Assembly (NCBI GenBank): GCA_026026165.1
Contig: JAPEUD010000018.1
Coordinates: forward strand, 124,001 to 188,000
Origin: Sarea resinae
Taxonomy: Eukaryota
Length of the DNA: 64,000 bases
Reading direction: 5' to 3'
A model generated the notes under the pieces. The model did not search any database and was not told the DNA's origin. It saw only the letters and a list, made by a program, of their open reading frames with translations. The translations under genes were made by a program, and so were the position numbers. This document shows positions 12,108 to 44,952 of the stretch, one piece after another; position 1 is the stretch's first letter; the number at the start of each line of letters is the position of its first letter.

Positions 12108-15100
12108 TCACTTCTTCTTCTTCCCACCGCCGAGGCCGAGAGAATCTCCGATGGCCCCAAGTCCGAGACCACCAAGCAGCTTGTCGATACCCAAACCACC
12201 GAGCAGGCCGTTGACGAGACCACCTAGGCCAAGACCATTGAGGAGCTTGCCAACGAGTCCGAGAACACCGCTCAGCAACAGACCCACGGCAGCGATGATC
12301 TGGAAAAGCGGCTCAGTGAGTAGACCCCATAGCGGGTTGAGCCCCTTCTTGGCATGGGGCATGTCGTTGAGCTTCTTGCGAGCATCATCAATCGTCTTTG
12401 TGACGGTCGTGGTGAGCTAGAGAGGAAGTCGTCAGCAACGAATAACAAGATGGAAGTTGAAAGTAGGCTCACCTCTTTGAGCAAATCAGCCAGGCGATAC
12501 TCCTCAGGAGTAGCCTCTCGTTGGGCAGCCTTGGCTTTCGCGTTGGCAGCGATTCGGCCGTCGGGGTCCAGTCCTCGAAGAGCGCCGTTGCACTCTTGCA
12601 AGATGCGGCCTCCTTCCTCAATGAGGGGCTTCACCGCTTGCACAAGCTCTTCCTCATCGAGCTCATCCTTGGGAGTACGGTCTGCCTTCTCCATGTGCTG
12701 GATGGGGCGTTAGCTTTGATAGGCAAGGTCTCAGGATATTGGCTTACCTCGGTAATCATCTTACAGACGGGCTGGATATTCTCCAGCGTCTGTTGTAGAA
12801 TGTTCGACATCTTGTTGGCCAACTCTTTGTCTTCTTCGAGCTTCTTCTGCTCAGCCAGCTCCTCCTCCGTCGGGCCCTCGTCTTGAAGATTTTCAATCAA
12901 TGTGCATTCTCCGACCTTGTTGCCGTCGTTATCGACGACATACCCATTGTCATCGATCTCTTTGCCAATCAAGGACTGCAGGTTGCCCGCAGTGAGTTTG
13001 CCAATGACGTTGCCATCCTCATCACGCACCTCGCCTTCCCTGTTGACTTTTCGTCCGGCCATCGGATTGATGTCTCTCTTCTTCTCCTCAGGTTCCCACC
13101 GTTCTGCGTGGCCAAGAACATTGCCGTTCTTGTCAAGAACGTCACCATCCTCATCCACGGAACGCCCAACGAGCATTTTCTCATCGCCATTCGTGAGCTT
13201 GCCGACGATTTGCCCGCTAGGATCTTGAACGACGCCGCCCTTGGCAACAACGAGATTCTCCCATCCAGCGAACGGCCCTTCCGACTTCTCGTCGCGCTCG
13301 TCTCCAGGAATGAGTATGGCCTTTCCGATGACCTTGCCAGCATCGTTCCAGATCTGACCCTCTCCATCGACTTTCTTTCCGGCCATTGCCTTCGGATCGC
13401 CTTGAGAGATTCGGCCAATAACGGTACCGTTGCTGTCCACGACATTGCCGACCTTGTTTACGACGCAACCCGCGAGTGATGAAAGGTCCTCTGGCTCTTC
13501 TTCCGGTGCCTCCCAAGGAATTGCATGGCCCTTCACATTACCATACTTGTCGGTAATATCGCCATCCTCATCAACTGAGTGTCCGACAAGTCGCTTGGCA
13601 ACGCCCTCGACGACTTCACCGACAACATTGCCGCTTTCATCTTCGACTTTGCCCTCCTTCGTGACCACGAGGCCTTCCAGGCCGGCGAAAGGTCCTTCAG
13701 GCTTGGCTTCGCGTTGGTCCTCCGGAATGAGCTCGCAACGTCCAATGACTTTGCCCTGGTCATTCCAGAGTTGGCCCTCTCCGTCGCACTTCTTGCCAGC
13801 AAGTTGCTTAGCATCACCCTCAACGAGACGACCAATTGGGACGCCTTCATCACCGATGACGTTGCCCTGTTTGTTGACGACTTTTCCAGCCAGGACAGAC
13901 AGATCCGCGGGGACTTCCTCAGGTTCTTCGATAGGCTCGGCGTGACCGGCGACATTGCCATATTTATCCATAATGTCACCGTCCTCGTCAACAGCCCGTC
14001 CGACCAATTTCTTGGGGTTGCCTTCGACAATCTCGCCAACGACGTTGCTGTTTTCATCCTCCACTTTACCCTCTTTGTTGACGATGAGCCCTTCCAGGCC
14101 TGCGAAGGGGCCTTCTGGCTTACCCTCACGCTCCGCCAAGGGGATCACCTCGCATTTGCCAACGACTTTGCCATGACCATCCCAGATCTGGCCTTGGTCG
14201 TCACATGTCTTACCAGCGAGTTTCTTTGCATCGCCCTGGATCAACCGACCAATTGGAACGCCCTCGTCTCCGATGACATTTCCCATTTTGTTGACGGCCT
14301 TGCCCTCGAGGATGGAAATATCCAGTTCTTCCTCCTCGGGCTCCTCCCATCGTTCGGCATGGCCAGTGACATTACCGTTCTTGTCGATGACATCTCCGTC
14401 TTCGTCAACACGACGACCAATCAATTTCTTTGGATCGCCTTCCACGATCTGGCCAACAACGTTGCCATTCTCGTCTTCGACCTTACCGCCCTTGACGACA
14501 ATCAGACCTTCAAGATGGGCGAAAGGAGCTTCTTCTTCCTTCTCTTCCACGGCGATGGTCTCCGCCTTGCCGAGGACGTGGCCCTTGCTATCCCAAAATT
14601 GACCCTGGTCATCACAGGTGAGACCTAACTTGGAGAGCTTCTTCGGGTCACCTTCAATCAACTGGCCAACAGGGACGCCTTCATCATTGACGATCTTGCC
14701 AGCCTTGTTGCAGGTAAGACCCTCTAAGACAGAGAGTGGGGGCAGTTCAGGACCGGCACCTTCTGCAATGGTTTCGACCTTGCCTATGACGTTTCCTTCA
14801 TCATCCAAGATCTCTCCCTTCTCGTTGATTTCCTTTCCAGTGACGTCAGAAAGCTCGCCTTCGGTAAGCTTCCCAACGGGTTCGCCCTCGTCGTTGAGAA
14901 CCTCACCCTTCTTGTTGACCTTGAGGCCTTTCAGTGTAGAGATATCTGGAAGCTCTGGTGTTTCTGGCGCAGCATCTGCGAGTTGCTCCTTGAGAACAGC
15001 AAGAGCGTTGTCGGCTGCTTCGCCTGGGACAACCTCAACCTTGCCGATGACGTTACCCTTCTTATCCAAGATTTCACCGTTGTCATTGATGGTCTTGCCG

Positions 15101-17193
15101 GCCGTCTCCTTGGGTTCGCCTTCGGTCAGCTTGCCAATCTGCTCTCCTTCCTCGTCCAAGACATTTCCTTTCTTGTTGACTTTGAGCCCCTTAAGAATGG
15201 AGAGGATCGGCAATTCCGCGCCTTCTTTGAGCTTATTGGCTGCGTCGCCGGGGACGACCTCAGCCTTCCCGATGACCTCGCCATCTTCATCCAAGATCTC
15301 TCCCTTCTCGTTGATCAGTTTGCCGGCAAGCTCCTCCGGGTCGCCTTCAGCAACCTTGCCAAGCGGATTGCCATCAGCGTCCAGAATGTCTCCGGATTCT
15401 TTGACTTCTAGCCCTTGAAGGACTTCAAGTCCGGGCAGTTGGTCCTTGACGCCATCGGCCGCTTCGGTGAGTTTGTTTGCAGCGTCTCCGGGCACAACCT
15501 CCGCTTTCCCGATGACCTCACCTTCCTCGTCGAGGATATCACCCTTTTCGTTGACCGTTTTCCCGGCAAGCTGCTCAGGGTCGCCTTCGGCAATCTTACC
15601 GAGCGTGTTGCCATCTTGGTCAAGGATTTCTCCGGCTTCATTAACTTCCAAGCCGTTCAGCACGTCAAGGCCAGGCAATTCAGGCACTTTGTCTTTCAAA
15701 TCGCCGGCCAAGCTGGAATTAAGCGCTTCGGGGATGACCTTTGCTGAGCCGAGCACATTGCCTTCGTCATCGACAATCTCGCCCTTTTCGTTGACAGTCT
15801 TGCCTTCTAGCTCTTCATGATCACCGTCGGCGACTTGACCAACGAAGTTGCCTTCGTCATCGAGGATATCGCCCGTCTTCGTGACTGCCAAGCCTTTCAG
15901 GATTGAAACGTCTGGCAGTTCGGGAGCGGCATCTTCGGCGGTGTCTTTGACGCCGTTTGCAAGCTCCTCGGCCTTCTCGGGGAGCACTTCGACTCTACCG
16001 ACAAGATCGCCGTCTTCGTCAAGGATTTCGCCGTCATCGCCGACGGTCATGCCAGCAAGCTCTTCTGGATCGCCTTCAACAACCTTTCCGAGGGAGCTGC
16101 CGTCTTGGCCAAGGATCTCGCCGCCTTCGCCGACTTCAAGACCCTTGAGAATCGACAAGTCTGGAGTGGGTATTTCCTGACCTGTGGCATCTTCGGCTGA
16201 TTCCTTGACCCCGTTGACAGCATCGCCGGCTGCATCCTTGGTGCCTTCGGCAGCATCGCCTGCGGTATCTTTCGCGCCTTCGGCGGCATCGCCAGCATCG
16301 GGTATGTCACCATTGGTAGCCTCTTGGCCCTTGCCAGCTAGGCCTTTAGCAGCGTCAGCCTTGCCAGCGAGATCCTTTGCTCCACCGAGAATGCCTTGTC
16401 CGCTCTTTTTCACACCTTCGACGGTGTCTTCGGTCTCATCTCCTTCGTCGTCGCCTTCGTCATCTCCAGCATCGTCGGCTGTGTCTTCGATATCTTCCTG
16501 TGCTCCACCAGCAGTATCTTCGACGTCGGACGTCTCGGGTTCAGGAGCTTGCTCTTCGAGCTCCCCAGTATCGCCGACTCCTGAAGTAGAAACTGCAGAG
16601 CTTTCGTCGTTTGTTTCTTCGTTTCCTGTTTCGTTGCCGGCTTGAGAGATCTTGCCTTCCGGAGATTCTTCTTCGGTTTCATTATCTTCCATCTGGACTT
16701 TACTTCCGACGCCCTCAGCTGCCTCTTTAGGGTCTGCATCAGCTGGGTCTGCCTCCTTTGGTCTCGGTGGCAATTTTGGAGAATCTTCTGGCTTTTTGTC
16801 TTCGGCGGTCTTCTTCGCCTTGGAAGCGGCTGGCTTGGCTGCAGACTTAGCTGACTTGGGCGTTGGTTTTGCTGGGACATCTTTGGACGGAGTTCCCTTC
16901 GAGGGAGTTTTCGAAGGTTTCGAAGGGGTTGACGTCTTGGGTGCTTTTGGTGAAGGAGACGGCTTTTGCTCCTGGCCCAACTTTGATGTTGTGTTGGACG
17001 AAGGCTTCTTACCAGCTCTTGTCGGTGTAGAAGGGGCATCACCGGTCTTGCCGGCGGCGGGAGAAGGAGCCATACTTTTGGATTGTCTGGCAGTGTGTGG
17101 TGTTGAGGGAGAGTCGCGGCCTGCGATTGGAGATGATCTGTTGGGGGTGGGGGGGAAGGAGTAGTACGCGTATGAAGAAGAATTGCTTGTCAT
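12108..17193 (-). CDS. Large acidic repeat protein (DUF3659-type repeats; often labelled 'LEA domain protein') with a helical, Gly/Leu-rich C-terminus
   Basis: 1553-aa ORF 12631-17292 with ~15 repeats of type LSxLxGLxVNKxGxxxDxxGxxxGxxxEGD. Two short introns (~12696-12747, ~12418-12472) join it to ...EPLFQIIAAVGLLLSGVLGLV...GGGKKKK-stop at 12108. Start uncertain (ATG at 17073, 17193 or 17292). Confidence 0.85.
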
Positions 17194-19886
17194 GTAAGTT
17201 ACAAGCTTTCTGATGGAATTGGGAGAGGAAGAGAGAGTTGAAGGACCGGGCGAGTACTCTATTAATGAAGTCAGACGGGAACACAGGGGCATACACTACG
17301 TCACTGCATCACATCTCACGCTGCAGATAGGTTGTGCCTCACTGTGGCTGCAAAGCAGGTTTTGGCTCTCTGGGGCCTCTGGGGGTGGTACGCAGAGCTT
17401 CAAGGTAAGTGAGCAATGGAGTGAGCATTCGAGAGCTACTCACCACTGTGGGACCAAAGAGCGAAGGTATTGCGTCAGAAGCTCTCAAGCCGCAGGCCGG
17501 GTTGGGCAAGCTCCTGCACGATGCTACTAAGAGACTTGGATTAAAAGCTACTTGAAATAGGGTCTGTGGCTGGAACCTCTCGCCGCGATTGGGAGGGTGG
17601 TGGTGCCATCTTGGGATTGGTGGAGGATCGAAGGAATGCGACCAGCCATGATTAAGGTGCGAAAGTTGATGGAGACGGGAAACTCTACGAACGGAAGGGG
17701 CTCCGTTTCGCATGGATAATAGGACAATTGGACGAAATCCCATGGGTGGCGGGCTAGGCAAGGTCTCTAGAGGACAGATAGGTTGCAACAAAGGTAGGAA
17801 GAAGGTAAGCGGGGTATGCCAGCTTTCCCATCTGGCGTTGAAGATTTGGTATCCATTTGGTATACTTTCCCCCTTGCATTGGTTGGGCCAATACTCTGAC
17901 TCTACATCTGTCATTGGCGTGAGCAGCATAGGCAGCGGCGGGTGGGCCCCTTGAGCATGCCACAGGTGGCTTGTGTCATGACGCGAAGGACACTCGCAGG
18001 TCCAGCTTTCAGGTTGTCGTTTGTCAACAGACGTCATCGTCGTGCACACAGCTGGAAGACGGATTTGGGTACCTCGGAAGAGTATACATCGTACCTGGAA
18101 GCTTACGATCCTATGCCCGAATTTTCCCAGGAAAGGGAGCGAAATTATCGACTTTGGCGCTTGAGTTTCCCGAAGAAAATCTCGTCTTTCTCGACATAGT
18201 CGGCCTTTTGCTAATGCTGCCATCGCTGGAAGTTGCGCGACGTTGAAGAGGCGATGCGTTGATGATAAGGGAGAAGTACAGAGTCAGCGCGGTACAGACT
18301 GTATCAGAGAGCGTCTCTAGCCGGTAAACGACGGCAAGCCACACCCACCTCGCGACCAGCACTTTCCGCACGGACTTGGGCCGAGAATTAAACTGGTCAC
18401 AGGAGAGAGAGCAGAAAGGAGGCCTAGAGCAAGTCTCGCTCGGGGATCTCTAGCCACGTTCATCCATCGTCGATGATTTCTCTATGGCATCGTCGCTAGC
18501 ATCGGTCTAGCTGTCGTCATCATTGTTGTTCTCATCTGAGCCATCTTACCCTGACTTCTAGGGTACCTGCTTTTCGCAACCCTGTGCCCTACTCTACTCT
18601 ATTCTACTCTTCCCACATCGTGATCGAACATCGGCTCGAACGTGGGATGTGGACAGGACAGAAGATGGGGTGGGATCCACTCCTCACGGGAGAGTGACAT
18701 GCACATTACTGCATTCAACACGCTACCCAGCCGTAGTTGTCGCCACTGCGAAGTGCTGGCCTTGTATTGCTTGCCTAACATGCGATGATGCGACTCAGCA
18801 CTCTAAATACAGCAACGGCAGACGAATGCGAGATCATCAGGGCCGTCCTAGCTTGATGGCGCAGGGATTCGATATGCATGTATCCATGTGCGTGTGCGAA
18901 TGTGCATGCATTGCAATCAAGATGCATGAGGATCATGATCGCCTTTGCGATCAAACGAGGACACCACCGTTCGCCACAGCCACTACATGCGGAGTGCTGG
19001 GATTGAAACCGGATTGCGACGGCCCTGTAATTTGCGGGGTACGTACTTGGGTGTTCTGTGCGACGTGCTAACATACGCAGACTTGACGGGGTGCAGCATA
19101 TGAAGTCGAGTAGCATGAAGTCGGTGCGACTCTCTTTCCACAGCAAACGCAAATCCTTCTCATCCGTCTCTCTTGTACATAGAATAGGAATCCCCCTTTG
19201 AATCCTTCTTGTCACGAACCAAACTGCCATTATCCATTTCCTTCAAGCTGCTGCTGCTGCTGCTGCTGCTGCTCCTTGCAAAGCTCTCACTCCTCACTGA
19301 ATGATACTTCCATTGGCAAACACATCTGTAAATCGGCCACTCTAATCTGCAGATGAACCACAGGGAACAGGGGGCCGGGGCTCCTCCCTCTGTCGCACGA
19401 TCGCCAGAGCTAGGTACATTGGGTAGGTAGCAATGCAATCGTAGCGGCACTAGCCACACCCACCACCCACCACAACCACGGAGTATCCGTACTCTACGCT
19501 ATACCTTTGCTCCTCGAAGTACGAGATCTACTCCGGTACTCGACGACGGGAGACACTCAGTAGGTACTCTACCTTCGTAGACCTGGAGTACAAGAAAACG
19601 GGAGTACTCGGTACATGAAAACGGGAGCTTCCTCGGCACAAATGACGTCAGCCCATCCTCTTCATCCTCTTATTCTCCGGCTCTCAACCCACCATCCCCT
19701 CCTAGGTACCTAGGTCGCTACCTGCCTAATCTTGTGCATCCCATAGATCAATCCCATCCTTCCCATCCTTAGTACTCTTACTACTGAAGTACTCTCGAAG
19801 GTTATCATAACCCTGGCTGTCCAGCTTTATCCATCTCATAGTATCTATCTATGCTTCATCACCTTACAGTAGTACGGCGCAGGAGG

Positions 19887-23339: not shown

Positions 23340-23923
23340 TCCCTGTTTACCTCACCTTGGCGATGACGTTGGGAGTGACGCTATTGCTGATGCTACCTAG
23401 GTGGGTTCACGACAGAGCGTTCATGATAGATTCATCTTGACAACGACTGTAAAAATATATCGATGTGTGGAGGAAAGATAGAGTATCGTGTTGATAAGTT
23501 TGGAGTTGGGTTTCTCCTCTAGCTTCTATTCCTGTGACCGAAAACACTTTCTTGTTTGAAGGATCCAGGGTCGCAAGGCGCAGTTAGGCGCAGTGATGAG
23601 TGAAAGAATTCAGGGTCGAAACTTGGTTGGCGCAGGGTGAAGCACATCTGACCATTTAGGGGACCACCTTAGGGGACCAGTGGGGCGTATGCATTCGTAT
23701 GCGTATTCGTACGTGCACGATTCCACAATGTGTCAACTGTCAGTCTCTATACACCCACGTGGGTTTCGGCCGTTGAAACAGAACATTCACTATCCATGCC
23801 GCCTTCCTGATGCACAGTAGTAAAGCTGGCCCAGTGTACCATACCCAATATGCCCAACCAGACTCCGGAAAATCCCATTCCAAGTAACATAAATGTTATG
23901 GCAAGTAATATGTCCATCTCAAA

Positions 23924-24509
23924 TCAGTTGAACCCTATGACTCCCTCCCCAACCCTCTCTCCTCCACAGAGCAAGCGGATCTTTCGTCCCACAATACCAC
24001 GGCCCCCAACTCCAAGGTCCAGTCGTTCCGGTAGATCGAACCCATAATCTGGATCAGAGTGGCCCTTCAAAGACACCAACTCGAAAGGAAATGAATGAAG
24101 AGGTTGACCTGCTGCCGAAGATAGCGGGTCTGTCAGATCCCCATTTCGACTTGAGTGTCAGAAATGTCAGCACTAATGTCAGACAATGATTACACGGCTA
24201 TCTCAGACCGCATGCGCAGGACCTCTGGGACTGGTGCCTGAGATCCGAGCATTTCAACGAAGCCAAGACTTACTCTATCTGCAGCGAGCACTGCCTCGAT
24301 CCATGAAGCGCATCGCGCGCGATATCATCTGATATCCGGACAGCTGCCCGCGTTGTCGAATCCGAATTGCCCTCATCGTTGTTAAAGACAAAGTTGCAGA
24401 TATTCCTCGATGGGATCTGATCACCAACACTATCAAGGGCGGGGGATGAGGAGAACATCACAGCAATCCGACCGCCGTCGCTCTTTCGCCCGGACTCGCC
24501 GTTGCACAT
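23924..24509 (-). CDS. Small (153 aa) Cu/Zn-SOD/CCS-fold-like protein lacking metal ligands, 2 exons
   Basis: Exon 1 is 24509-24274. Intron 24273-24150 has a GTAAGT donor, three CTGAC branch motifs and an AAG acceptor. Exon 2 is 24149-23924; the total is 462 nt in frame. Translation ends ...SLQIDRNGDLTDPLSSAAGQPLHSF...FDLPERLDLGVGGRGIVGRKIRLLCGGERVGEGVIGFN*. The fold assignment is by eye. Confidence 0.75.
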
Positions 24510-24550
24510 GCTTGCGGGAGATAGAGGTCAAAAATAATGCAAAGACGGTC

Positions 24551-25076
24551 CGAGCAGATGTGTAAGTTCAGACGAATGGAAACGAATGAGCAGAAAAGAG
24601 ACACAGAGACAAGAAAGTAAAGGGACAGGAAGATTCCCAAGGGAAAGGGCTAGATATTGAATGGGAGAAAGGGAGGTCTTGGTTACAATATTCTCGGTGG
24701 ATACTGTTCCTCTGGAAAGAGACGCTGATGAAACGTGCTTGAGCAAATTCGAGCATGATGAGCGCATTTCGGACTTGGCAGGGCATCCTAGATATTGACA
24801 TTGATTACACATTGATTATCGGCAGGTCAGAGGAAACATGATGATGCATCCCATAGAATGAGTAGCAATGCTTGCCGTCCAGTATCCATCCGTACCAGGG
24901 AGATGCAATTGTTGACAAGCGACCCGGAATTGGAAGCGATTTGCATCAAATCGACCGACGAACTCCTAGTCGCGCATCACCAACCGATTGAACACGGCCG
25001 ATTGGCTCCGATGCGCACCTTGGTGGACCCCTCAAAACAGCTCAACAATGGACGCAACACCGCTCAAACTTGCTCA
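24551..25076. promoter_or_regulatory. Cluster of Mac1-type copper-response-like motifs TGCTC(A/G) in the divergent promoter
   Basis: Minus strand: TCTGCTCG 24551-58, TCTGCTCA 24587-94, TTTGCTCA 24740-47 (exact yeast Mac1 CuRE) and ATGCTCG 24750-56. Plus strand: CTTGCTCA 25069-76. Weaker GCTCA cores at ~24759, 25040 and 25062. Confidence 0.5.
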
Positions 25077-25347
25077 CCATCGCAGGTCTTCGCTTCTTCC
25101 CACTCTTGAAAGTTCGGAGAATCAACACTCGACCGACAACCGTGTCGAGTGTGAGCTGCCATACCAACAACACGAGGGCAAGCACCTCAAGCACCTTGGT
25201 GGATTGCTGACTGACTGCGTTTCGTCACAGCTCCAACGTCACGACTTTCAAGCCAGACATTACGAATTGACGAAATTGACGAATTGATCCGAAACTGATG
25301 GTACTAGGAGCTTCCAATCTCGATTGAACATACCTTATCCTTTAAAG

Positions 25348-26225
25348 ATGTTGCCCGCCCTCTGGTCCACAGGCATGGTAATGCTGGCTTCGGTTCAAGG
25401 ATTCAACCTGCCCAGCTTCTCCAACATGGCGGCCCCGACCACTCCCGAAGTATACACGCTGCCCGAGCTACCCTACGCCTACGATGTAAGGAAGTCCAGT
25501 TGCAAAAGCTGTTCCGTCAATTGAGGGGACTGCGTTGGTGGGCATCGGATTGACATCTCGTGATATACAGGCGCTCGAACCCCACATCTCCACTCAGATA
25601 ATGACCCTCCACCACTCAAAGCACCACCAGACATACATAACCAACCTCAACGCCGCCCTCTCCGCCCAAGCTACAGCCATCAGCACGAATGACATCCCTT
25701 CTCTCATCTCCATCCAACAAAAGATCAAGTTCAATGGCGGCGGTCACATCAACCACTCGTTGTTCTGGCAGAACCTCGCCCCGGCTTCATCGCCGGACAC
25801 ATCCCTCTCGACAGCCGCACCCAAGCTGAAGGAAGCGATTGAAAGACGGTGGGGCAGTGAGGAGGAATACAAAAAGAGATTCGGGGAGGCACTGTTGGGA
25901 TTGCAGGGGAGTGGGTGGGGTTGGTTGGTGAAGACCAAGGACGGCGGATTGGAGATCGTGACCACGAAGGATCAGGACCCAATTGTGGCTCCCGATGTCC
26001 CGCTACTTGGCGTTGATATGTGGGAGCATGCGTACTATCTCCAGGTAAGATCCCTCGTGTCGTTCAAGCTTTGACAAACGGTCATTGATTGTTTGCGGGA
26101 TACAGTATTTCAATAACAAGGCGCAATATGTAAGCGGAATCTGGAACATCGTCAATTGGAAAGTTGCGGGGGAGAGATACCAAGGGGGTGCGGATGTGTT
26201 TAGTTCTTTCAAGTCGGAACTTTGA
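25348..26225 (+). CDS. Manganese superoxide dismutase (Fe/Mn-SOD family), 3 exons; alternative start at 25426
   Basis: YTLPELPYAYD|ALEPHISTQIMTLHHSKHHQTY, KFNGGGHINHSLFW, LQGSGWGWL, DMWEHAYYLQ|YFNNK. Introns 25486-25570 and 26045-26105; ends ...FKSEL*. Confidence 0.96.
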
Positions 26226-26505
26226 GCAGCTCTCTTCTTATTCGGATCTTGCCCGAGTGACGGACACGTTTCGAGACTTGAATTGTCATATTATTATGCT
26301 GTAAACCCTATGCAGTACCGCTAAACCAGACTGGCCACGCTATGCAAGTGGATGCGGATCGTTAAGAGACATTAAAGAAACGTTCATGATATCCTCTCCT
26401 GGTTATGCCACCTGATGAATGGAACGGACACTCGTGATGTAGAATTGGTGTTGGGTGGCGGCCGCAGCTAAGGGGGCCGTGGCAACCTGTCAAGGGCTTT
26501 TCGGC

Positions 26506-27206
26506 CTATATCAAGAAGCCAAAGCCGGCAAAAAGACCAGCGGTGAGGGCCACTATTCCATATGCCTGACCAAGGCTGAAATCTATGATGGCAGCACCGC
26601 CAGACTTAGGCCCATGGCTAGCAGATGTGGTGGCCGCCGCACCACCCCAGCCGGTCAGTATCGTGGTCGATGGAGCAGCTGTTTTGGTGGCAGTGATCAA
26701 AGAGGAGGTTGTCGTATTGACCCGCTTAGGGCTCTGCGCGCCACATGGGTGGTTTGATCGGCAGGCACTCTCACAGGCTGAGTTGCCGGAGCAATTTCCC
26801 ACGCATTGATTGTCATATTCGGTGCAGATGAAGTAGGGAAGCGTTTGCGAGTATTGGGTTGCATTTGGAGACTGGCCGTTATTGCAGACGCAGTTGTAGG
26901 TCAGGACAGTCTACAGTGGATGAGTAAGAGATTCATCTCTCCGAATCGGGAAAATGATGTGAAGCTCACAGAATTGCATTGGTTTTCTTGGGTGGTGGAT
27001 GATGGCGTAATCTGGAGGCAGAGGAGAGGGCAAGCAGATGTCTGTGAATTGCACCAGTTTTCTTCTTCAAGTCAGTGCTGTGCGTTGATTGGGAAATGCT
27101 GGCATTGCCTACCTCTTGTAGACAGGGGCACGGAACTTGGGTCAATTGACTGTGCCGAGACCAGGCCAGCAAAGGCGAGAGACAAGAGAATGATTAGAGA
27201 GAGCAT
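26506..27206 (-). CDS. Small secreted Cys-rich, Ser/Thr-rich, probably GPI-anchored cell-surface protein, 3 exons
   Basis: Signal peptide MLSLIILLSLAFAGLVSA; QSIDPSSVPLSTR|ENWCNSQTSACPLLCLQ; YNCVCNNGQSPNATQYSQTLPYFIC; HPCGAQSPKRVN; S/T-rich stalk and hydrophobic tail GQAYGIVALTAGLFAGFGFLI*. Confidence 0.85.
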
Positions 27207-42190: not shown

Positions 42191-42672
42191 TACTGGCTGC
42201 ATCTACCAGCGTTTTAATAGTGCCATGGAATGCGTCTTTGGGGCATTTATCATCGAATGGCCCGTGGCTCGCTCCATTACGTATTACTTCAAGAACCTAC
42301 CGTATACATAACTGGCGTCCACGACTAGAGATGAACGCTATGAGTGAAGACTGAATTGTAGTTGTTATCATTCTAGTGACATTATCATGACCATTGCACT
42401 CTCCGTGCCTCCGAAGATTCGAGATATCAAGATCCTCTATAACCCTCGACCCGGGTCATCCTCGGCTTCGTCGTCTTACATAAAGCATCCCGCAGATGAG
42501 CAGACTCTGAAGGCCGTAAAATGACTATGCAACAACAAGGCGAAAAGGAACCAGAGACTTTTTGAGAGAGAAATCAGCGGCCCAAGGAAAATCGAACGCG
42601 AGCAGATCTGGTCATCGACTCTTCTCCCCTTCCCTTTGACCGCTCATCTTCCACTATCCGGAGCAGAAGCAT

Positions 42673-44952
<2,280 letters not shown>

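Follow-up and report, generated by a model that had tools for sequence, protein, structure and literature searches.

A conserved pair of genes for a Mn-SOD and a predicted, ligand-less SOD-fold protein in filamentous ascomycetes, possibly a copper-starvation module

Positions 23924-26225 of a contig from a metagenome-assembled genome (MAG) of Sarea resinae hold, as read from the sequence, two divergent genes: a small two-exon gene on the minus strand and a gene for a manganese superoxide dismutase (Mn-SOD) on the plus strand. Positions are those of the window, by which we mean the whole 64-kb stretch of DNA that was analysed. Here we show that the small protein has relatives in many filamentous ascomycetes, that its gene stays beside a Mn-SOD gene where flanks and orientation have changed, and that its predicted fold is that of a Cu/Zn-SOD from which the metal ligands are missing. 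The two genes are built as follows.

24509..24274, minus strand: exon 1 of the small gene, 236 nt, start codon at 24509-24507; codes for the N-terminus with its invariant Met-Cys
24273..24150, minus strand: intron of the small gene, 124 nt, GTAAGT...AG
24149..23924, minus strand: exon 2 of the small gene, 226 nt, with the stop codon at 23924-23926; codes for residues 79 (the codon's last base) to 153, among them the motifs GIVGR and GVIGFN, at positions 75-150 of the family hidden Markov model (HMM)
25348..25485, plus strand: exon 1 of the Mn-SOD gene, 46 codons; hydrophobic N-terminal extension, with a second in-frame Met at codon 27
25571..26044, plus strand: exon 2 of the Mn-SOD gene, 158 codons; Sod_Fe_N and Sod_Fe_C domains, with RNA contigs
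26106..26225, plus strand: exon 3 of the Mn-SOD gene, 39 codons and the stop codon

The small gene yields a protein of 153 amino acids, identical to P0001 (recorded as 'MAG: hypothetical protein M1819_001893 [Sarea resinae]'), and the Mn-SOD gene one of 243 amino acids, which is P0186 (M1819_001894). Between them lies a spacer of 838 bp (24510..25347). The coordinates, protein length, orientation and spacer length given in the first-pass annotation of this DNA all proved correct when the gene models were read again. Contigs from the RNA library of a wood-decay metatranscriptome (run X2) are 95-99% identical to both genes (window 23800-26300), and this near-identity suggests that a close relative was transcriptionally active in that material. 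One contig joins 26044 to 26106 and skips 61 nt with GT..AG ends, which confirms the second intron of the Mn-SOD gene; a close relative of the S. resinae fungus transcribes Mn-SOD. The exons of the small gene are likewise present in this library, which may contain some DNA: contigs cover 23951-24101 (exon 2) and 24488-24662 (the 5' end), and the transcript has a leader of at least 153 nt before the ATG. Altogether these contigs cover a minor part of the stretch, with the intron junction of the small gene outside their coverage.

When 1.84 billion representatives were searched exhaustively with phmmer, 81 proteins matched the small protein at E<=1e-3; a profile built from 41 of them raised this to 114, and no precomputed Pfam domain is recorded for any of these. 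These 114 belong to Dothideomycetes, Sordariomycetes (many Xylariales, and Fusarium), Orbiliomycetes, one Aspergillus (Eurotiomycetes) and Sarea. A word-index search with exon 2 alone had returned only the protein itself, and the description of the small protein as an orphan, to which this pointed, was overturned by the exhaustive search. Seven residues are invariant in the family (M1, C2, G12, G82, G130, G133 and R134), and R8, A16, T53, I78, D83, L84, an LDLGV block, and G148 and G151 of a C-terminal GIIGWN-type motif are near-invariant. The Met-Cys start is found in 176 of 181 family proteins of at least 120 amino acids, the five exceptions looking either truncated or wrongly extended. Furthermore, metagenome contigs were scanned with a pattern derived from a 10-sequence alignment, a single pattern that favours one part of the family, and this gave ten loci (L001-L010; L003 and L004 are near-identical and were counted once). 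In the small gene and in all nine related loci that hold both exons (L001-L007, L009 and L010), the intron lies at HMM position 74/75. The ratio of non-synonymous to synonymous substitution (dN/dS), tried on seven pairs of which four were saturated at synonymous sites, is 0.08, 0.06 and 0.19 in the three unsaturated ones. The small protein belongs to a real Pezizomycotina family under purifying selection. That family and its linkage to Mn-SOD appear to be undescribed in the searchable literature, where six family locus tags are mentioned in no paper, and where nothing relevant was found on an SOD-like protein together with Mac1 and copper. As for existing labels, the source records of two members from Pyrenophora tritici-repentis and Diplodia corticola (P0089 and P0090) give the name 'oxoglutarate iron-dependent oxygenase', which is probably a mistake of annotation, as neither fold nor sequence supports an oxygenase. 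Two UniRef names in the family read 'Superoxide dismutase copper/zinc binding domain-containing protein'.

How firmly are the two genes tied together? Searching the ten metagenome loci by tblastn with the Mn-SOD of the window, we found a Mn-SOD gene directly adjoining the small gene in eight, which are all eight of the informative loci. The other two, L008 and L009, are uninformative because their contigs stop 75 and 18 bp ahead of the small gene, short of the expected place of the Mn-SOD; from there on, L009 is collinear with L004. The pair is divergent in the window, tandem (Mn-SOD, then the small gene) in L003/L004, L006, L007 and L010, and convergent in L001, L002 and L005, the best hits being Pleosporales-like for the tandem loci and Penicillium-like for the convergent ones. 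Between these locus groups and the window, only the gene pair itself is common, and the flanks differ (tblastx, 1e-8). Only two named organisms occur in both protein lists, and in both of them the pair has consecutive accessions: jhhlp_000630/000631 in Lomentospora prolificans, and KAF4451137/KAF4451136 in Fusarium austroafricanum. Three orientations with unrelated flanks mean that proximity, and not the head-to-head layout, is the conserved feature, and linkage to Mn-SOD is kept in at least four ascomycete classes despite rearrangement. As such, the first-pass annotation, which had named linkage in other genomes as a check on its own proposal, is upheld by the 8/8 informative loci and the 2/2 named genomes, while the shared head-to-head promoter on which it had built is specific to the Sarea genome, the relatives being tandem or convergent.

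The identity of the partner gene is clear. Pfam matches its product to Sod_Fe_N (1.1e-26) and Sod_Fe_C (1.6e-24), and the columns holding H61, H108, D195 and H199, which we take to be the His/His/Asp/His metal ligands of Mn-SOD, are invariant across 41 orthologues. With 66-72% identity to proteins of Aspergillus, Penicillium and Fusarium, it falls in the Sod3-type group. Many orthologues carry a hydrophobic, signal-peptide-like N-terminal extension (window 25348-25428; P0186, P0250, P0287, P0301, P0303, P0305 and others), and the catalytic domain, which opens with LPxLPYAY, is preceded at a distance of 7-12 residues by a conserved in-frame Met, the point at which the short Aspergillus forms start. 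The extension and the conserved internal Met together suggest two Mn-SOD isoforms made from alternative starts, one secretory or directed to the endoplasmic reticulum and one cytosolic, which may be likened to the Cuf1-driven alternative start of SOD2 in Cryptococcus.

For the small protein, the evidence on its nature comes from structure prediction. Its ESM Atlas model resembles Cu/Zn-SODs and Ccs1 (template modelling (TM) score 0.56-0.60), and the model that AlphaFold2 gave from the family alignment is all-beta, with a predicted local distance difference test (pLDDT) score of 84.1 and a predicted TM-score (pTM) of 0.78. When this was compared with the PDB by Foldseek, 50 of 50 among the matches listed were Cu/Zn-SODs (best E 2.8e-4). 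Alignment to Cu/Zn-SODs with VIA-align gave Z 10.2-11.1 over 113-115 residues, with a root-mean-square deviation of 3.2-3.8 A and 15-22% identity, and placed model residues 11-153 on SOD1 1-152. Moreover, in a search of 48,161 representative chains that is independent of Foldseek, all 13 chains with Z>=8 are Cu/Zn-SOD or CCS; rank 14 is a Bacillus subtilis SOD-like protein (Z 7.5), and the first non-SOD fold follows at Z 6.4. We therefore accept the eight-stranded Greek-key beta-barrel of Cu/Zn-SOD as the predicted fold of the small protein.

Active Cu/Zn-SOD needs six His and one Asp to hold its Cu and Zn. In the family alignment, the best His column is occupied in 28 of 41 members and the next in 20 of 41; no His is invariant, some members hold a single one, and the lack of a conserved His column marks the small protein as ligand-less. 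Cys2 is the only Cys column present in at least 40% of the members, the conserved intrasubunit disulfide pair of SOD was not found, and near the C-terminus a Glu presumably takes the place of the disulfide Cys, going by SOD1 numbering. SOD1 has two long functional loops, and the stretches that match them are short in the model, as judged from its secondary-structure string. The Met-Cys arm starts some 10 residues before the first barrel strand, and residues 1-10 are modelled with low confidence (pLDDT 56). The wording 'Cu/Zn-SOD-like', chosen from the letters of this DNA, is thus borne out at the level of the fold, by the AlphaFold model, Foldseek, VIA-align and the 48,161-chain search, and not by sequence; 'ligand-less' is borne out by the family alignment. 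Taken together, the small protein is by prediction a pseudo-enzyme, a single-domain SOD barrel that has lost its ligands.

The closest precedent for the role proposed below, by analogy, would be the pseudo-dismutases of poxviruses, the Cu,Zn-SOD homologues of leporipoxviruses, which share with the small protein an SOD barrel whose catalytic ligands are lost. These viral proteins are described, in the part of the source available, as decoys which attach to the copper chaperone CCS and reduce the Cu/Zn-SOD activity of the host (PMC7605207). The best viral structural match, in BFVD, is the inactive Cu-Zn SOD-like virion protein of Murmansk poxvirus (E 9.7e-4, TM 0.45/0.59). Poxvirus pseudo-SODs are viral and act on the host, whereas the small protein is cellular, fungal and linked to a Mn-SOD, and it differs further in having no conserved His, short loops in the model and an invariant Met-Cys arm. 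Another relative in shape is domain 2 of Ccs1/Lys7, a non-dismutase SOD-like barrel which uses the SOD dimer interface to dock on Sod1 and to which the small-protein model aligns with Z 9.7-10.0 (1ej8, 1jk9_B and 1qup). Ccs1 has three domains, namely an Atx1-like one with MxCxxC, the SOD-like one, and a C-terminal one with CxC, whereas the small protein is a single domain of 153 amino acids, with neither MxCxxC nor CxC in P0001. The B. subtilis SOD-like protein (1s4i, Z 7.5) and Candida Sod5 (4n3t, Z 8.8) have the same barrel with a reduced set of ligands. These are proteins of the extracellular or lipoprotein type, and in Sod5 the copper ligands and the activity are retained; the small-protein family, in contrast, has no signal peptide and no conserved His.

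Regulation is where copper enters. A Sod3-type Mn-SOD replaces Cu/Zn-Sod1 when copper is scarce, and the pair described here resembles the Mac1-driven swap of Sod1 for Mn-Sod3 (Candida albicans, sod3 of Fusarium oxysporum, and Cuf1/SOD2 in Cryptococcus) in having the same Sod3-type Mn-SOD flanked by Mac1-type elements. The available portions of the swap literature describe no SOD-fold partner protein, and the conserved second gene is a new element relative to the known swap. Low-copper induction of F. oxysporum sod3 (FOXG_04389) depends on Mac1, and chromatin immunoprecipitation sequencing of Mac1 found binding between sod3 and the adjacent FOXG_18820, a cluster that is named as a direct Mac1 target (PMC11563359, seen in part). 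FOXG_18820 was up in low copper by RNA sequencing but variable, and was left off the main list for this variability; the accessible text makes no statement on the nature of its product or any likeness to SOD (PMC11563359). In the searchable literature, FOXG_18820 occurs in no further paper. F. oxysporum, strain 4287 included, holds family members, and this, together with the adjacency to Mn-SOD in F. austroafricanum, makes FOXG_18820 very probably a member of the family. Under copper withholding, Pseudogymnoascus destructans lowers its Cu/Zn-SOD transcript 2.1-fold and raises Mn-SOD3 2.3-fold, according to the section of PMC12113139 at hand. The earlier proposal that the pair responds jointly to low copper thus gains from F. 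oxysporum, where a Mac1 site lies between sod3 and FOXG_18820 and both go up, to the extent that FOXG_18820 belongs to the family. Its companion remark that no system of this kind had been described holds for the family, but not for the sod3/FOXG_18820 cluster, already listed as a direct Mac1 target.

The spacer of the window holds the following candidate copper elements, and related loci share a further block.

24740-24747, minus strand: perfect copper response element of the Mac1 type, TTTGCTCA, on the sense strand of the small gene and 236 nt ahead of its ATG
25070-25076, plus strand: TTGCTCA (context ACTTGCTCACCA), sense to the Mn-SOD gene, ~277 nt before its ATG
24587-24592, minus strand: TGCTCA core, 83 nt before the ATG of the small gene
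L004:5650-5770, L006:2690-2800, L007:2150-2260, L010:1960-2080: conserved block with TGCTCA upstream of the small gene

The core at 24587-24592 lies inside the transcribed leader and is for that reason probably not a working site. Counted over the 64-kb window, the 8-mer TTTGCKCR occurs at chance level (9 found, 8.84 expected), and the motifs gain significance only through their conservation in related loci. Every pair has TGCTCA sites upstream of at least one of its two genes. More specifically, a sense TGCTCA lies 170-320 nt upstream of the ATG of the small gene in six of the eight independent loci with enough upstream sequence (the window, L002, L003/L004, L006, L007 and L010), and the background for such a site, taken from the same DNA, is 6.8% of positions. 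The Pleosporales-like spacers are unalignable except for a short conserved island that contains the site AACNTGCTCAAAGA beside a CCAAT box, and this TGCTCA island lies immediately upstream of the small gene rather than of the Mn-SOD. The conserved block was seen to hold a GGAGTACCGTGGTGG element, the CCAAT box, and a second CTCA-type half-site ~5 nt downstream. In the Penicillium-like loci (L001, L002 and L005), a 12-mer, ATGTGCTCAATC, which the alignment shows with AA in front, is kept upstream of the Mn-SOD gene while its surroundings differ. Sites in the window and in the related loci fit the consensus for F. oxysporum Mac1, published as DHNTGCTCANNN in the part of PMC11563359 available. 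The Mac1-type motifs that the first-pass annotation had seen in the spacer are therefore present and conserved beside the pair in related loci, but stand at chance level in the window taken alone.

Several observations weigh against this reading of the locus as an SOD-fold protein and a Mn-SOD under joint copper control. Sequence comparison gives no hint of SOD: Pfam has no match for the exons of the small gene, nor for P0001 at E<=10; PF00080 is matched by 0 of 41 family members at E<=1, nor does any other Pfam family match them; phmmer and profile (hmmsearch) searches of the PDB found no SOD; and hhalign against Escherichia coli SodC gave a probability of 0.3. With sequence methods blind to SOD, the fold assignment rests on the predicted model. 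The conserved GD, GxxGR and GxxG motifs presumably fall at dimer-interface residues of SOD1, a mapping made by SOD1 numbering rather than a tool alignment, and hence a lead. Copper control of the small gene is read from F. oxysporum by way of the candidate membership of FOXG_18820. As for the motifs, the binomial probability of 2.5e-6 for the six loci out of eight is overstated, because the four Pleosporales-like loci are related. Upstream of the Mn-SOD gene, TGCTCA is missing from ~1 kb in L003/L004 and from the 981 bp that L010 offers; L006 has a distant one only (-664) and L007 an antisense one only. Upstream of the small gene, L001 and L005 have no TGCTCA. Finally, PaSod2 of Podospora can be placed in this Mn-SOD orthogroup, since a published antibody peptide matches the C-terminus of P0290. 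PaSod2 is reportedly lower in the copper-depleted grisea mutant and is restored by copper, from which its authors conclude, in the part of the paper accessible, that it is not a GRISEA target (PMC3495915). GRISEA and PaSod2 were considered as support for Mac1 control and dropped, the available text giving an opposite or unclear picture (PMC3495915).

Elsewhere in the window, no copper gene, Sod1 or Ccs1 was found among the 48 open reading frames scanned (47 of the 72 with at least 150 amino acids, and one of 134). A gene for a DUF7707 protein (26506-26910, minus strand; Pfam 9.6e-18), Cys-rich and with a tail rich in Ser, Thr and Ala, lies tail-to-tail directly downstream of the Mn-SOD gene and is not shared by the related loci. 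A frame of 1554 amino acids at 12631-17295 (minus strand) consists of 15 DUF3659 repeats (Pfam: 1060 bits, E-value 0) and also matches Bflower_2 and DUF6987 weakly. A frame at 42930-43508 (plus strand) matches the Pfam family NAD-GH (6.9e-32) and overlaps another at 42640-43449 on the same strand in a different frame; we take this family to be one that often marks the antisense strand of Hsp70-type genes, and the real gene here may be on the opposite strand.

So what could such a pair do? That it is a real conserved module which includes an SOD-fold protein we regard as very likely, and control of the module by copper and Mac1 as probable. As an overall explanation, a conserved two-gene copper-starvation module of filamentous ascomycetes is one on which our belief and our doubt are evenly balanced. 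The module idea of the first pass is largely supported, by the fold, the loss of ligands, the linkage and the conserved Mac1-type sites, and its interpretation as a whole partly so. In low copper, Mac1 would switch on both genes, and the Mn-SOD would take over dismutation. The dead SOD-fold protein might meanwhile dock, via a retained SOD1-type interface, on apo-Sod1 or Ccs1, with its N-terminal cysteine arm reaching into the partner, such that copper would not be spent on Sod1, or would be recovered from it. Action of the small protein on Sod1 or Ccs1 is a possibility about which we have more doubt than confidence. Its most specific form, a Mac1-induced ascomycete SOD decoy that forms a heterodimer with apo-Sod1 or Ccs1, and whose arm either blocks the copper loading of Sod1 or strips and recycles its copper, is more tentative still.

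The dead SOD-fold protein could also handle copper itself, apart from Sod1 and Ccs1, as a low-copper scavenger, a buffer, or a chaperone serving priority enzymes, which we consider unlikely. After removal of the Met, the invariant N-terminal Cys, perhaps paired across a homodimer, would bind Cu(I), a detail to which we give the same low credence. Within the family, conservation is indeed highest in the N-terminal arm (M1, C2, R8 and G12), the barrel is akin to the domain 2 scaffold of CCS to which the model was aligned above, and a Mac1-type regulon, of which the pair would be part, consists mostly of copper-acquisition genes (Table 1 of PMC11563359, in the part available). Against this, there is one invariant Cys only, with no conserved His or Met partner, where Cu(I) sites normally need two to three soft ligands; the arm is modelled at low confidence; and direct copper handling leaves the persistent adjacency to Mn-SOD unexplained.

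That adjacency is precisely what would be expected if the small protein served the Mn-SOD itself, be it as an accessory subunit, a helper in manganese insertion or folding, or a localisation adaptor: neighbourhood kept through three orientations while the other flanks differ is a pattern typical of functionally coupled pairs. An SOD1-shaped protein is, however, a more natural partner for Sod1 or Ccs1, and we know of no Mn-SOD that needs such a partner. In addition, many of the orthologous Mn-SODs have the signal-peptide-like extension while the small protein has no signal, which means that both may sit in different compartments, and PaSOD2 is described as probably secreted in the accessible part of PMC3495915. 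Complex prediction for Mn-SOD (residues 27-243) with the small protein gave ipSAE values of 0.03 and 0.05, which in a run without controls count neither way. On balance, we think a Mn-SOD partner distinctly unlikely. Finally, that linkage and motifs are leftovers, with only the Mn-SOD under copper regulation and the degenerate SOD-fold protein in an unrelated role (such as that of a regulator under redox or degradation control that acts via its N-terminal Cys, which is as improbable as the rest of this explanation), could draw on the weakness of single short motifs as evidence and their chance-level count in the window, on the variable expression for which FOXG_18820 was dropped from the main Fusarium list, and on the contradictory Podospora data for this Mn-SOD orthogroup (both in the parts available of the papers cited above), but it runs against an adjacency found with unrelated flanks in every informative locus and both named genomes, and against a Pleosporales-like TGCTCA island that adjoins the small gene and not the Mn-SOD.

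Returning to a copper-starvation module with a small protein acting on Sod1 or Ccs1, the exchange of Cu/Zn-Sod1 for a cytosolic Mn-SOD is the textbook response of fungi to copper starvation, and matters for the virulence of animal and plant pathogens. To our knowledge, this swap has so far been described as a purely transcriptional, one-for-one exchange of enzymes. A conserved second gene, whose predicted product is shaped like the enzyme being replaced, suggests an unrecognised step at the protein level, for which control of Sod1 metallation, salvage of copper from Sod1, and direct handling of copper are candidates. Being invisible to Pfam and without functional annotation, the family has escaped notice in copper transcriptome studies. 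It can be tested in tractable species that have a member, such as Fusarium and Pyrenophora, and also in the Penicillium-like fungi from which metagenome loci derive. If the decoy proposal is true, the small protein would be a copper-sparing switch at the post-translational level, inherited together with the replacement Mn-SOD, and the first cellular, non-viral pseudo-dismutase regulator.

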